From an uncultured Gammaproteobacteria bacterium (GTDB taxonomy: Bacteria > Pseudomonadota > Gammaproteobacteria > CAWCPV01), in NCBI GenBank assembly GCA_963797555.1, contig CAWCPV010000003.1, positions 384,001 to 448,000 of the forward strand: a DNA stretch of 64,000 nucleotides, written 5' to 3'. How positions within the stretch are numbered: the first letter of the stretch is position 1; the number at the start of each line of letters is the position of its first letter. Below are positions 23,607 through 31,872 of this stretch, piece after piece. Under the pieces are notes generated by a model, which was given only the letters and a program-made list of their open reading frames with translations, was not told where the DNA came from and did not search any database. A program made the translations under genes and the position numbers.

Positions 23607-23891
23607 CAATGCAATGGGGTCAGACACCGTTACCTCGTATTCCGGCGCCGTGAGACTGGCTTCGTTCGAACGGAGAGCAAAGCCAGAAGCTTCTGCCGTG
23701 CCGTCTCCCTCGGTTGCGTCCTCGGCCGCCCCTGCCAGCCTTTCCAGGTACCGGCGGCAAAGGGAGTAATCACCATTGTGCCTCCGGAAAGCCGCTTGCA
23801 GCGGGTGCCTTTCTAGTGTCCAATGGCCGGGCGCTGACGTGAAGGATCTCGGGGCGGCGGATCACGGCCGCCATAGGGAGGGAGACAATCC

Positions 23892-27939: not shown

Positions 27940-29604
27940 CCTGGATCCATGACTTGAATCTCCGAGCGCCCGGGGCGCGAGAGAATGGGAGCTATTCTCA
28001 GTTGAGTTGGTTAGTTTTTAGCCAACCGGTGACGCCGGCTATGTACAGCGGGCGTAGACCCTCGTCGGCGCAGGAGTGACGGCGGGGCTTTGAGGCTTGG
28101 ACGCTGAATTTCGGGCGTAGGTTTACACCGGGGTCTGGTGAGGCCCGGGTCGAGTTTCTATGGAGGTCGTCCTAGCTACCCGAAGGCGAGTTGGTAATAC
28201 AGCTGCTCGAAGGCGCGGAAGCCGGGACAGAGCCGGCTGAAGCGCAGCTTCAGTCTGCGGGCGGTGGCGACCAACCGGGCGGCGAGGTACATCAGTTCCT
28301 GGAGGACGGTCTTGATCCGCCGGCGCTTGGCCGGATGGCGCAGGGGAGCCGACTCGCCGGTCAGCCCGATGAGCCCGATGAAGCGCAGGATGTTGTAGGC
28401 GAACACGGCAAAGGCGAGCACCAGGTCATTGGTGTCGAATTTCCCGGAGGGCAGCCGTTCGATATCGAGGTCGGTCTTGAACTCGCTGTGGAACTGCTCG
28501 GAGGTGCCGTGGTCACGGTACAGGGCGACAATCTCCGCGTCCGGATAGGCGAGCAAGGTCCACCAGCCCTCGAGCTCCAGCTCCGGTACCAACAGCGCCT
28601 GGCCCTTCTTGTCGATGGTGCGCTCGGTCACCCGCATCACCCGGCGAACGTGGTAGGTGTGCTCCCGATGGGGGTGCTCCTCGACGACGCTGAACAGCGC
28701 CACGCGCTTGCCGGGTCGGGGTGTCTCCCATGCCCCTTGGCGCTCGGCGCGCTCCAGCCAATGGGCAGGGTCCTCGCCCCGAGGGTTCCACTGGATAATG
28801 AAGTCCACCTCCTCTTCGAGGTAGCGCAGCCGGTTCTCCAAGGCGTTGTGGGCGCTGTCCTGGCGCACCAGCAGCGGCAGTTTGGTCAGGCGCCTGGCCC
28901 GCGGCAGGATGCGCTCCCAGACCTAGCCGAATTCCTTCTGACTGTGCTGCTTGCCTTCTCGCAGCTCACAGCCGACGCACCACCCTTCGGTTCCCACATA
29001 GGTCGCGATCGGCGCATAACCGTCATAGCCGTGGTAGGTGCGCGAGACTCCTTCTTGCTTGGTCCCGGAGTTGTCCATGGGAAAGACATCGATGTCCACC
29101 GGCACATGACCGGTCTTGAGCGCACTGACCGGTGCCTTGGCGTTGACCATGAACTCGATATCGGCCTCGTCAATGACCTCCCGCAGGACCGCTGCGTGCT
29201 CGTCAAGACGCTGCCTCAGCGTTTCTGGCGAGGGTACCCGCTCCAGCCCCAACGCCTGGCGGAAGAAATCGTCCTCTCGGACGTTGGAGACCGCTTCGAA
29301 GTCACTCTTGCCCAAACACATCAACCCCAGATAGCTCTTGGCTACGTCTTCATGGGAGATGCCGTGGCGTAGCGGGATCGCCTGCTTCAGCGCCTTGCCC
29401 AGGCCGCTGAAGCGGTTGACGCAAAGACCGACCAAGGCCAGACCAGAATGGGAGGTGTAAAATTCCTCATCGGACTGCTCCAAGATGAACCGCTTCATCG
29501 TTCACCTGCCGGGTGAGCTGGAGTGCGGCCCGATTTTAGCTGAACTGCAATGATAAATCAGCAGGTTGCGGCCATCCGCTGAGACGCGAAGTCACGGAAT
29601 CAGG
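27940..29604 (-). mobile_element. IS1380-family insertion sequence
   Basis: IRs CCTGGATCCATGACTT / AAGTCACGGAATCAGG (13/16 match) and 5-bp target duplication ATAGA (27935-27939, 29605-29609). Confidence 0.92.
28176..29498 (-). pseudogene. IS1380 DDE transposase with in-frame TAG at 28923-28925
   Basis: TSHSGLALVG, PSPETLRQRLD, VDIDVFPMDNS, RQDS, YRDHGTSEQFHSEFKTDLDIERLPSGKF; both ORFs are in the same frame. Confidence 0.85.
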
Positions 29605-30550
29605 ATAGAATCAATGAAGACGATGTTTTGTTGTACACACTACACGTGAATTTCAATTCGCTGTGGGAAACGAATTCTTTAGATAGATGCAACAAGATTT
29701 TGGCTGACGGCAATCAAATCCCATTTATAAGAGCGTTTACAGACTCACTCTCGAAAAGTTTTGAGTGCCTTTCGGTGTTTTTCGGCAGTCATGAGCGGAA
29801 CAACTTTGAGATTCATTCATTGGTAACACTTGGCGGCATAGGCGTTGCGTTGCCGTTTATAATTAAAGCGTGTAGATATGGTTTGTCGCGTGATGAGATT
29901 GGTGGGCTGTGTTCATCGTTAGAAGCACTGGTGCTTCGGCATAGGATAATCGGTACGCGAGCAGACATTACCTCAAGAGTCAACGATGTGTTCGAGAAGT
30001 TTACGGAAAACGACAAGGACACGTCCCCGATAGTTTCGCGAATCGATTGGATGAAGACGACGACGGACTGGTGGTGTGCCCACTGGAACAATGAAAAATT
30101 TAGGGAGGCCCTTCAAGGGGGGCTCAATCATTCAGTTGCAAAATTCCTGCTCTGGAAATATGAAAATCACCTGATAGGAATTGGCAAGGGCGGCTCTATT
30201 TCGCGCTACGACCAAATTGAGCGACCGGAGCTCGAACACATTGCTCCGATTACGGAGCCTGAAAGTAGGCCGCACGGGTATGACACATATGACGAAGAGT
30301 TTTGTAATCAATTTATAGACTGCCTAGGCAATTACTTGCTTTTAACAAGAAGGCACAACCGTTCCATCCAGAACGATCCATTTCTGGTAAAACACGAGGA
30401 CTATACGTGGCTTGCACAGCAAAGGGAGGTGCGAAAGTTAGTTCCACACCCCGACACGGGCATCTGGAGCAGGCAGATAATACAAGAGAGGAAGGAAAGG
30501 ATCATTGCAGTAATCATGGCGATTTGCTGAAGGCCGATAGGAAGTCGTGC

Positions 30551-30686
30551 ACAGCTACAGCTACAGCTAATGGGGTCCAGCTACAGCTACAGCTACAGCT
30601 ACAGCTACAGCTACAGCTACAGCTAACAGCTAACAGCTAATGGGGTCAGACACGTAACAGCTAATCAGCTAATGGGGTCAGACACG
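30551..30686 (+). repeat. Ladder of tandem, variably 3'-truncated copies of CAGCTAATGGGGTCAGACACG
   Basis: Units read CAGCTA, CAGCTAA, CAGCTAAT, CAGCTAATGGGGTC and CAGCTAATGGGGTCAGACACG, all with the same 5' start. Confidence 0.9.
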
Positions 30687-30693
30687 ATAATCT

Positions 30694-31407
30694 GTGCTAT
30701 CCTTCGTGCAGTCACTTCACGACCTGAACCGCCAGCCGCAGCATGTCATCCAGCGCGGCAACAACCGCCAGGTGATCTTCGCCGCGGATGCGGACTATCA
30801 GTTTTTTCGCGATGCCCTGGTGGAAGCGGCAAGTCAGCATGGTCTGTCGATCCACGCGTATGTCTGGATGACCAACCACATCCATCTCCTGGCCACACCT
30901 GAATGCGACCACAGCATCAGCAAAGTCCTCCAGTCAGTGGGTCGGCGTTATGTGCAGTACTTCAACTTCGCATACCGGCGCAGCGGCACCTTGTGGGAAG
31001 GCCGCTACCGGGCGACGGTCGTCGATAGCGAGCGGTATCTGCTGACGCTGATGCGCTACATCGAGCTCAACCCGGTGCGGGCGGCCCTGGTGGCGCACCC
31101 CAGGGATTACCCCTGGTCCAGCTACCGGCGCAATGCGCATGGCGAGTCGGGATTGAACGCAGACTGGATGAGGCCGCACGAGGAATATCTGCGCTTGGGC
31201 CTTACTCCGGCGGAGCGGCAAGGTGCCTACCGGCAATTGTTCCGGGCGGCCGTCTCCGGCAACGACCTGAGGGAGATCCGTGAGTGCACGCACAAGGGCT
31301 GGGCGCTCGGCGGCAACCGGTTCAGGGACCAGGTCGAGGCGCTGGGGCAGCGGCGTGCAGCGTCCAAGGGTGTGGGCAGGCCGAGAAAGGACGATCATCG
31401 CGTCTGA
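30694..31407 (+). CDS. REP-associated tyrosine transposase (RAYT / Y1 HUH); N-terminus looks atypical
   Basis: QHVIQRGNNRQVIF, HAYVWMTNHIHLL (HUH), LWEGRY, YIELNPVRA, YPWSSY and C-terminal GRPRK. Flanked by inverted AATGGGGTCAGACACG (30671) and CGTGTCTGGCCCCGTT (31410). Confidence 0.9.
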   Translation: MLSFVQSLHDLNRQPQHVIQRGNNRQVIFAADADYQFFRDALVEAASQHGLSIHAYVWMTNHIHLLATPECDHSISKVLQSVGRRYVQYFNFAYRRSGTLWEGRYRATVVDSERYLLTLMRYIELNPVRAALVAHPRDYPWSSYRRNAHGESGLNADWMRPHEEYLRLGLTPAERQGAYRQLFRAAVSGNDLREIRECTHKGWALGGNRFRDQVEALGQRRAASKGVGRPRKDDHRV

Positions 31408-31425
31408 CCCGTGTCTGGCCCCGTT
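31402..31425 (-). repeat. Tandem GGG(G)YCAGAC REP-like motifs downstream of RAYT
   Basis: gtctgaccc-gtgtctggccccgtt; the first copy overlaps the RAYT stop codon. Confidence 0.75.
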
Positions 31426-31647
31426 CCTCTCGTTTCGTCGTCGTGTTCATCTTCGCCTCCTCGTTCGCCCCTCGGACCCGTCCCGGGGTTGAGCACATAT
31501 CAGGCGTCGGTGGCGACGAAGCTCAAGGTATTTCGACGGGTTACGACTCCCTGACAGCGGCGAACACCGCACATGAGGAGCTGGGGCGCCTTGGCCCACA
31601 TACGGCGTTGACGGGCGATGTCCTGATCACGTATACGTGAGCCCTCT

Positions 31648-31872
31648 TTGCACCCTGGACGTGAGGGAGAGGTGCCCGAGCACAACGACGAGAAGAAGCT
31701 CCGCATTCGCATGGACGAGGAGCTTCACCGACAGATTGGGATTCGTTGCGCCGAGATCGACACGACCATCGAGGACTCTGTCGTGGAGATGCTGGAACGG
31801 GACCTTTCGGCCAACGGAATCAGGAGTCGGTCCTCAGCAAGGTCTCCGGGGCGGAGGGAGAAGGGTCGATGA
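31648..31872 (+). CDS. Small ribbon-helix-helix-like DNA-binding protein
   Basis: KKLRIRMDEELHRQIGIRCAEIDTTIEDSVVEMLERDL has the RHH beta-helix-helix pattern. Confidence 0.45.
   Translation: MHPGREGEVPEHNDEKKLRIRMDEELHRQIGIRCAEIDTTIEDSVVEMLERDLSANGIRSRSSARSPGRREKGR

Follow-up and report, generated by a model that had tools for sequence, protein, structure and literature searches.

Nested partial copies outside TIRYT element ends: ladders as a possible scar of nick, prime and rejoin chemistry

A 64,000-nucleotide (nt) stretch from an uncultured Gammaproteobacteria bacterium (GenBank assembly GCA_963797555.1, contig CAWCPV010000003.1, positions 384,001 to 448,000 of the forward strand; hereafter the window) carries a TIRtron, that is, a RAYT-like Y1 transposase gene (TIRYT) set between terminal inverted repeats. 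Directly outside the left end of this element lies a stack of short units, every one of which is a truncated copy of the end itself. What kind of event leaves such a stack behind, and does it belong to the locus or to the element? The second part has a plain answer: the ladder is a general property of the element ends, not a local oddity. The first part is answered with less confidence, as the ladder may be a scar of the transposase's own activity at its ends.

The ladder and the element in the window

The ladder fills window positions 30552-30665 with 14 head-to-tail units. By direct reading, each begins with CAGCT and is a 6, 7, 8, 14 or 24-nt prefix of the sequence starting at 30666. The full sequence, CAGCTAATGGGGTCAGACACGATAATCTG, begins there, directly 3′ of the ladder. 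The units and the end that they copy are as follows.

30552..30563, plus strand: units 1-2, CAGCTA twice; the 5-nt flank CAGCT and the first base of the end, within the period-6 row of Tandem Repeats Finder
30564..30577, plus strand: unit 3, CAGCTAATGGGGTC; a prefix that ends after GGGGTC, a stop shared with independent loci
30578..30619, plus strand: units 4-10, CAGCTA seven times; a microsatellite-like run within the ladder
30620..30633, plus strand: units 11-12, CAGCTAA twice; an exact period-7 repeat
30634..30657, plus strand: unit 13, CAGCTAATGGGGTCAGACACGTAA; 24 nt, a near-complete end copy with one A fewer than the full copy
30658..30665, plus strand: unit 14, CAGCTAAT; an exact period-8 duplication with 0 microhomology
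30666..30693, plus strand: full left end of the TIRtron; locus-specific CAGCT, conserved AATGGGGTCAGACACGATAA (containing the GGGGWSAS core GGGGTCAG) and the start of the conserved leader

A preliminary description of this DNA had given the same order of units and the same nesting of prefixes, and both are exact base for base. It had also held that the array is not a plain (ACAGCT)n microsatellite, and this stands as well. Tandem Repeats Finder needs two periods to cover the array, a period of 6 (14.2 copies, 83% matches) and a period of 32 in two overlapping rows, one of which spans 30624-30686 with 96% matches; over the rows at both periods the matches range from 75 to 96%. Since no single period describes the array, it is not a uniform microsatellite. 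The ladder shares with microsatellites and variable-number tandem repeats (VNTRs) its short head-to-tail repeats and the (CAGCTA)7 part, which is a true uniform hexanucleotide repeat and probably an ordinary microsatellite expansion. It differs from them in its five unit lengths, all prefixes of one sequence where a plain microsatellite or VNTR has a single unit length, in being tied to an element end and to one strand, and in recurring at unrelated loci with different flanks.

The element next to the ladder has two further parts.

30694..31407, plus strand: TIRYT / RAYT-like Y1 HUH transposase open reading frame (ORF); 237 amino acids (aa) if read from GTG
31400..31422, minus strand: right end; two adjacent inverted cores, CGGGTCAGACGC and GGGGCCAGACAC, matching the right ends of paralogues

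A Pfam search of the 237-aa ORF found PF01797 (Y1_Tnp) as the sole domain (E 2.1e-13, 50.9 bits against a cut-off of 23, residues 17-124). With NF047646 (REP-associated tyrosine transposase, equivalog) the ORF scores 74.7 bits (E 6.7e-21), under the cut-off of 80, and it is a relative of that family, not a certified equivalog. Read by eye, the translation keeps the HUH motif (NHIHLL; WMTNHIHLLATP) and the Y---NP tyrosine motif (MRYIELNPVRA). TIRtrons and TIRYTs were named by Di Nocera, De Gregorio and Rocco (2013, PMC3733652), in whose text the ends share GGGGWSAS. In the texts of the later classifications TIRYTs are TnpA-Y1 subclass 2.1 (Quentin, 2018, PMC6006769) and RAYT group 1 (Bertels, 2017, PMC5581495); the former gives class 2 the catalytic motif Y---NP and subclass 2.1 a C-terminal helix-turn-helix extension. 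The window gene is bracketed by inverted GGGGTCAG-core repeats, which is the TIRtron/TIRYT arrangement of Di Nocera et al. (2013): its flanks are AATGGGGTCAGAC-type inverted repeats, the RAYT-like gene lies between them, and GGGGWSAS is present at the left end (core at 30674-30685, plus strand). Inspection of 30640-30700 and 31400-31430 by eye showed no GTAG-tagged hairpin of the kind that marks a REPtron. The likeness to described TIRtrons extends from the Y1/HUH gene, and from inverted repeats in place of GTAG-tagged hairpins of the repetitive extragenic palindromic (REP) type, to gene-less end copies that are single, paired or clustered, a wide bacterial distribution and a low copy number. 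The window element is a new member of an already described kind. It had at first been called a RAYT element, which is right as far as the RAYT-like HUH gene goes, but the gene is a TIRYT with inverted-repeat ends and not a REP-flanked RAYT.

The source genome (G000) is a draft bin of 5.35 Mb in 20 contigs, 84.59% complete; its contigs are cited below as C2, C3, C4, C7 and C8. Full-length paralogues of the window gene lie at C3:778795-779436 and C4:653614-654285 (93-94% amino-acid identity), together with many fragments. The left end aligns with the paralogous copies from AATG on and not upstream of it. At 30694-30760 the window gene is short of ~33 nt found in its paralogues, among them the ATG start and the first 11 codons, and the alignment of the window copy to C4:653441-654360 skips reference positions 142-173. 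The frame is open from an upstream GTG, and the gene may be a weakened copy or a pseudogene. The two adjacent inverted cores at 31400-31422 mean that the right end is itself tandemly duplicated on its outer side; the outer copy reads GGGGCCAG, one position off GGGGWSAS, and paralogous right ends read GGGGTCAG. Target-site duplications were not seen by eye around the window copy or around the paired or complete ends at loci L033 and L061. An Rfam search of 30300-31700 gave nothing relevant, its one match being a chance miRNA hit (E 0.18).

Ladders at other ends of the family

The preliminary description had proposed that other RAYT flanks be searched for prefix ladders, and such ladders were found at independent ends of the TIRYT family in many genomes. 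The source genome alone has 29 GGGGTCAGAC sites, many of which show a flank-specific partial duplication across the junction of flank and element. Examples, with the two copies in order, are agccgaatgg followed by agccgaatGGGG, gttaatggggtc followed by gttaatGGGG, and agagaaacaatgg followed by agagaaacaatGGGG. About one third of the 33 loci with GGGTCAGAC(A/T)C have an exact tandem duplication of period 8-15 abutting the motif. The whole 5.35-Mb genome has 362 of these, so the ladders are far beyond chance. Three other families of ends, with the same GGGGTCAG core and different neighbours, have ladders that end at GGGGTC, GGGGTCA or GGGGTCAG. A second elaborate ladder accompanies a gene-less copy of about 150 bp whose left end is joined to its right end (C4:327405-327700, minus strand); it consists of 8 units starting TTAGGTTA, and two of its units have internal deletions (TTAGGTTAGGACACC and TTAGGTTACCA).

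The largest case is at C3:778750-781900 (minus strand), where a truncated TIRYT of another lineage is followed by head-to-tail prefix copies and then by a full copy. Here a 295-nt prefix matches the full copy at 300 of 301 aligned bases. Between the two lies a shorter prefix of ~30 nt, which the IS4-family element described below interrupts. The remainder of the first truncated copy was not found downstream of this macro-ladder. We considered three nested insertions carrying a linker as the origin of C3:779-782 kb; this was ruled out, the pieces being head-to-tail prefix copies.

A much smaller case is a solitary motif copy elsewhere in the window.

23607..23630, plus strand: solitary motif copy AATGGGGTCAGACACCGTT, preceded by the 5-nt duplicate CAATG, CAATG

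It had been taken for a miniature version of the ladder (CAATG before CAATGGGGTCAGACAC). The duplicate is indeed there, but exact tandem repeats of period 5 or more occur in 2490 of 20000 random 90-nt windows of the source genome, so taken alone it is weak.

Among other carriers, the culturable Formosimonas limnophila KCTC 32501 (L067) has a ladder. Two samples of public sequences extend the picture beyond the source genome. The first was chosen by a DNA pattern: at least 121 public genome contigs, spread over many phyla and including isolates, contain the 15-mer AATGGGGTCAGACWC. The copies often lie within a small hairpin, the outer stem of which is not the same from locus to locus, and many are preceded by similar partial copies. 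With an 8-mer taken from each locus as seed (AAT and the 5 flank bases before it), a further copy was found in the 100 nt upstream at 29 of 160 sites, against 0/160 for the reversed seed, and 39 of the 45 upstream copies are partial, copying 3-10 motif bases. Exact tandem duplications of period 7 or more between -70 and +85 end at 0 to +9 in 23 of 63 cases, and their last copy starts at -10 to -1 in 29 of 63. In a separate search the motif was found in 5/41 genomes, the source included, where the nearest comparison genomes were of the same class only.

The second sample was chosen by protein and comprises the best 80 of 187 metagenome relatives of the window ORF (59-84% identity), of which related contigs are only partly independent. 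A left-end motif of the form GGGG(A/T)(C/G)A(C/G) lies no more than 260 nt upstream of the gene match at 62/80 loci, and all 62 read GGGGTCAG. For those GGGGTCAGAC(A/T)C sites that are last in their cluster, counted separately, the 8-mer immediately beyond the end has a further copy within 100 nt at 21/62 plus-strand (left-end side) and 8/31 minus-strand (right-end side) sites. The controls gave 1/62 and 1/31 for an 8-mer inside the element and 4/62 and 3/31 for a reversed seed. By eye, a partial copy is present at about 33 of 56 distinct left ends, and at locus L159 the prefix reaches about 66 nt.

Locus L173 deserves a separate mention. Its element sequence downstream of the end is identical to that of L174/L175, in two different upstream contexts, and its ladder follows partial copies with a different flank (GGAACA..). 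This suggests that an element became joined within the 5′ portion of an end already there, and L173 may be a case of nested insertion. As a general cause of ladders, the insertion of whole elements into ends already in place was rejected, the downstream remainder of the resident end not being seen by eye (e.g., L093).

TIRYT ends are also visited by an unrelated mobile element. An IS4-family insertion sequence (IS) with ends AATGGCACTTACTTAAG is located at C8:49433-50960 (NF033592, 225.8 bits; ORF at L023 1525-2952), with further copies at C3:779572-781084, C3:783257 and C4:462329-463844. In every copy seen it occupies one fixed place of the GGGGTCAGAC(A/T)C motif, and it looks like an element that specifically targets TIRYT ends. 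An IS4 end sequence also adjoins the motif in the Gallionella contig L080, in what is apparently another copy. At L189 and L219, about 19 nt (tcATGGCACTcggTTAAGa) between a partial and a full end copy resemble a solo terminal repeat of this IS4-family element; the stretch could be a remnant of it, or a prefix copy that ran into it.

Elsewhere in the window, two further GGGGTCAGGT-type ends of other TIRYT-like families lie at ~32354 (plus strand; C3:416354) and ~20620 (minus strand; C3:404620). The region upstream of the ladder (28176-30530) contains an ORF with a GmrSD_C domain at 29628-30530 (PF07510, E 7.3e-13) and fragments of an IS1380-family transposase at 28923-29498 (NF033539, 157.6 bits, under the cut-off of 180). 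At 1857-2959, Tandem Repeats Finder reported a tandem array with a period of 126 nt (8.6 copies, 78% matches), equal to 42 codons, which is probably a protein repeat such as WD40.

Strand, unit boundaries and the possible origin of the ladders

Partial copies lie almost wholly on the outer side of both ends, 5′ with respect to the G-rich strand: they are present there at 26/158 sites, and on the mirrored side at 4/158. These are strand-specific, end-anchored direct duplications at the cognate ends, as a product of nicking, priming and rejoining would be. The feet of generic perfect hairpins in the source genome carry partial copies at 28/692. The ladders span 6 to ~300 nt across loci, and they are commoner at gene-adjacent ends (29/93) than at mostly solitary copies (19/134), some of which fold well. 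The left end in the window has no significant hairpin (-1.4 kcal/mol, z 0.00 against shuffles), while some other motif copies form a real one (L047, -4.9 kcal/mol, z -2.04). A stable hairpin is unnecessary for ladders.

We consider it about an even bet that the ladder is the scar of the TIRYT's own nick, prime and rejoin chemistry at the element end. The enzyme would nick the G-rich strand in the flank, a few bases from the conserved end, and remain covalently attached to the 5′ end. The freed 3′-OH would be extended into the element by host polymerase, or else a 3′-OH would be supplied by a nascent or sister strand, and the bound 5′ end would be rejoined to it. Each such event would place one more direct copy just outside the end, made up of a few flank bases and the opening 1-20 bases of the element, or rarely hundreds of them. 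Repeated events would yield nested prefixes, of which the shortest could then be expanded by microsatellite slippage. That the TIRYT makes the joints is inferred, as is the strand that it would nick, and its cut site may be either the start or the stop of a unit. A wider proposal, which we hold more tentatively and think somewhat doubtful, is that TIRYTs act in a rolling-circle-like manner at their own inverted-repeat ends, that the ladders are footprints of this activity and that the long prefixes are aborted replicative transposition.

Replication slippage or template switching would give a similar product with no transposase: the polymerase would stall in the G-run or at a quasi-palindrome, realign a few bases upstream and recopy. 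We regard this as unlikely, though it is an explanation to be taken seriously. In the (CAGCTA)7 run a hexanucleotide is simply repeated, the stops cluster in the G-run and just past GGGGTC(A), both possible pause points for a polymerase, a real hairpin exists in some motif copies such as L047, and one long junction has a 5-nt overlap. Junction microhomology was expected to separate slippage from ligation. At the ends it is at chance level (0 in 11 cases, 1 in 10, 2 in two), but 206 of 340 background duplications of period 8-15 in the source genome also have none, so the test is uninformative and the missing microhomology is no argument against slippage. What slippage does not predict is the strand asymmetry, which would be unexpected for a symmetric structure, nor does it fit that the feet of generic perfect hairpins show the effect so seldom. 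The window end is unfolded, and weakly folding gene-adjacent ends are richer in ladders than well-folding solitary copies. The five prefix lengths with a common start in the window also speak against it, and the prefixes of ~66 and 295 nt exceed short-range slippage. Slippage had earlier been said to explain nested lengths poorly. The prefixes of ~30, ~66 and 295 nt bear this out; slippage keeps some probability and probably accounts for the run of seven CAGCTA units.

The unit start fits the nick, prime and rejoin reading poorly. It is constant within the window ladder, but between loci it varies from -9 to -1 relative to AATGGGG, with a mode of -5. Neither its first base nor the dinucleotide before it is conserved (the unambiguous junctions have C four times, A three times, T twice and G twice), and its distance to the core or to the stem foot is not fixed. 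It lies in the locus-specific flank, to the point that a unit at C7:296650 includes 5 coding bases of the interrupted target gene. Two successive events at the C3 locus appear to use different starts, about -3 and -8, and one long junction there has the 5-nt overlap CAAAG. Such a variable start is odd for a site-specific nuclease, though TnpA_REP requires only a dinucleotide. Simple duplications are mostly 8-15 nt, which a staggered break or a target duplication would also give. The window gene lacks a normal start, and recent events at this locus would therefore need a paralogue in trans. The text of the RAYT and TIRYT literature reports no enzyme activity, cleavage site or mode of movement for a TIRYT. 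Lastly, the locus itself is unconfirmed in reads: among public sequencing runs none contained the ladder stretch, the best share being 0.17. In four runs, the sole identical read-sized contig has 136 nt (30666-30801) and lies downstream of the ladder, the rest being distant gene fragments; the pattern CAGCTAATGGGGTCAGACACG of the window's own ladder had 0 matches in metagenomes.

The unit boundaries also bear on what had been claimed at first. The preliminary description had a fixed donor end joined to variable acceptor positions just downstream. Nested prefixes, recurrence at independent ends, strand specificity, the long prefixes and the chemistry of relatives agree with this. The further claim that the ladder pinpoints RAYT cleavage 5′ of CAGCT is not supported. 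As the unit start is neither conserved nor at a fixed distance, and moreover lies in the flank and depends on the event, no cleavage site is pinpointed. The unit stop varies within a locus, with hot spots after AATGG and after GGGGTC(A), and these could equally mark the enzyme's site.

The cluster of duplications at 8-15 nt brings in another explanation, namely the filling-in of staggered breaks, including the footprints of DDE insertion sequences that target the motif: nicks about one helical turn apart would be filled and rejoined, leaving the interval in tandem duplicate, much as a target-site duplication stays behind once an insertion sequence has gone. The IS4-family element described above sits at a fixed motif position with an 11-12-bp duplication, GGGTCAGAC(A/T)C(G), and GGGTCAGACAC doublets of that very interval are found at C4:654291, at C2:117607 and at the right end in the window. 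This explanation may account for such GGGTCAGACAC doublets, and the sequence between two units at L189, which is like a solo IS end, also points its way. For the ladders as a whole we think it improbable. The IS position is fixed (+4 to +15), and the ladder units cover -9 to +10 with variable ends; their lengths are 6-24 nt within one ladder and up to 295 nt elsewhere; and the IS was not seen in many ladder-bearing genomes. Excision that leaves both duplicated copies is unusual for bacterial DDE elements, which also counts against IS footprints.

Whatever the mechanism, the units might be kept by selection as a binding-site array, with extra 5′ half-sites (..AATGG) that serve the TIRYT or a host protein in the manner of iterons next to the nick site of a rolling-circle origin. 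Ladders are very common at gene-adjacent ends (29/93 by the strict count, ~33/56 by eye), are always on the outer side and are composed of the most conserved part of the end, as such an array would be. Against this, the units contain locus-specific flank bases and have variable stops, their spacing is irregular, many ends have no ladder, and the internal deletions in units at C4:327553 look like decay and not like maintenance. There is accordingly only a slight chance, in our estimate, that selection for binding sites is the answer.

It is harder still to believe that the ladder is an artefact of assembly at a low-complexity stretch of a metagenome-assembled genome. The source is a draft bin, and ladder-spanning reads were not obtained. 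The same architecture nonetheless recurs in ~200 independent public contigs, which come from many studies and assemblers and in part from cultured isolates, and several other loci of the source genome show a ladder with different flanks.

Known systems and implications for the TIRYT family

The nested partial copies set the ends described here apart from TIRtrons as published, since the texts of Di Nocera et al. (2013), Bertels (2017) and Quentin (2018) do not mention them. In a text search that excluded figures, the word 'tandem' occurs 0 times in Quentin (2018) and Bertels (2017) and 8 times in Di Nocera et al. (2013), none of them about the ends, and in the latter 'partial', 'truncated' and 'duplicat' occur 0 times. 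No end stutter was found in the texts of the literature on TIRYTs and RAYTs, figures and supplements excluded, and a literal search of the literature for the motif gave nothing relevant among the matches listed.

The closest biochemical precedents come from the REP-associated enzymes. According to the text of Corneloup et al. (2021, PMC8266576), the Tyr-5′P link of TnpA_REP is resolved in vitro by any added oligonucleotide with a 3′-OH, and the specificity of its cuts is loose, with sites on the 5′ or 3′ side of the repeat at distances that vary. A model for the amplification of bacterial interspersed mosaic elements (BIMEs) has a nick, extension by polymerase and an attack on Tyr-5′P that adds a unit (Ton-Hoang et al., 2012, PMC3333891, Figure 7B). 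The reading proposed here is like this model in that a Y1 nick beside a repeat provides a 3′-OH that primes host synthesis, and the 3′-OH of the new strand attacks Tyr-5′P. It differs in the product and in the enzyme, as in the BIME model a second specific cut precedes the addition of whole REP/BIME units, and the model concerns group 2 enzymes with GTAG hairpins. The ladder units are truncated at many points and include flank bases, belong to another enzyme group and show no C|T-like cut signature.

Further likenesses lie in joints with one fixed and one variable endpoint. Michel and Ehrlich, in 1986, reportedly described illegitimate recombination at the nick sites of the M13 gene II protein and the pC194 Rep protein. 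In such joints one endpoint is set by the HUH nick and the other is variable, being the 3′ end of ongoing synthesis. They differ from chromosomal prefix ladders in being mostly deletions or joints on plasmids and phage, at a single defined nick site. One-ended or read-through rolling-circle transposition of IS91, ISCR and Helitrons likewise has one end fixed and the other variable, with tandem or truncated copies that share a terminus. Those elements use Y2 or helicase-fused HUH enzymes and leave dispersed copies with captured flank, in contrast to stacks of short prefixes at the donor end. All three are named in the text of Ton-Hoang et al. (2012, PMC3333891).

For annotation, ladders resemble microsatellites or assembly noise and may mislead; they also mark the ends of elements very precisely. 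For the family, the RAYT literature, in the text of its surveys, has TIRYTs (group 1) as the most widespread RAYT group; it is also the largest and the least studied. The strand-specific stutter gives a cheap and concrete hypothesis on which strand is cut and where, with the Tyr-linked 5′ end within ~10 nt outside the core. If the ladders are indeed scars of the enzyme's chemistry, thousands of public genomes would hold an in vivo map of TIRYT joining sites, in which the joints fall on the G-rich strand, no more than ~10 nt beyond the end, and the partner 3′ ends after AATGG and GGGGTC(A). They would then also be natural evidence for the nick-prime-rejoin route that has been proposed, and never seen in vivo, for REP/BIME amplification.

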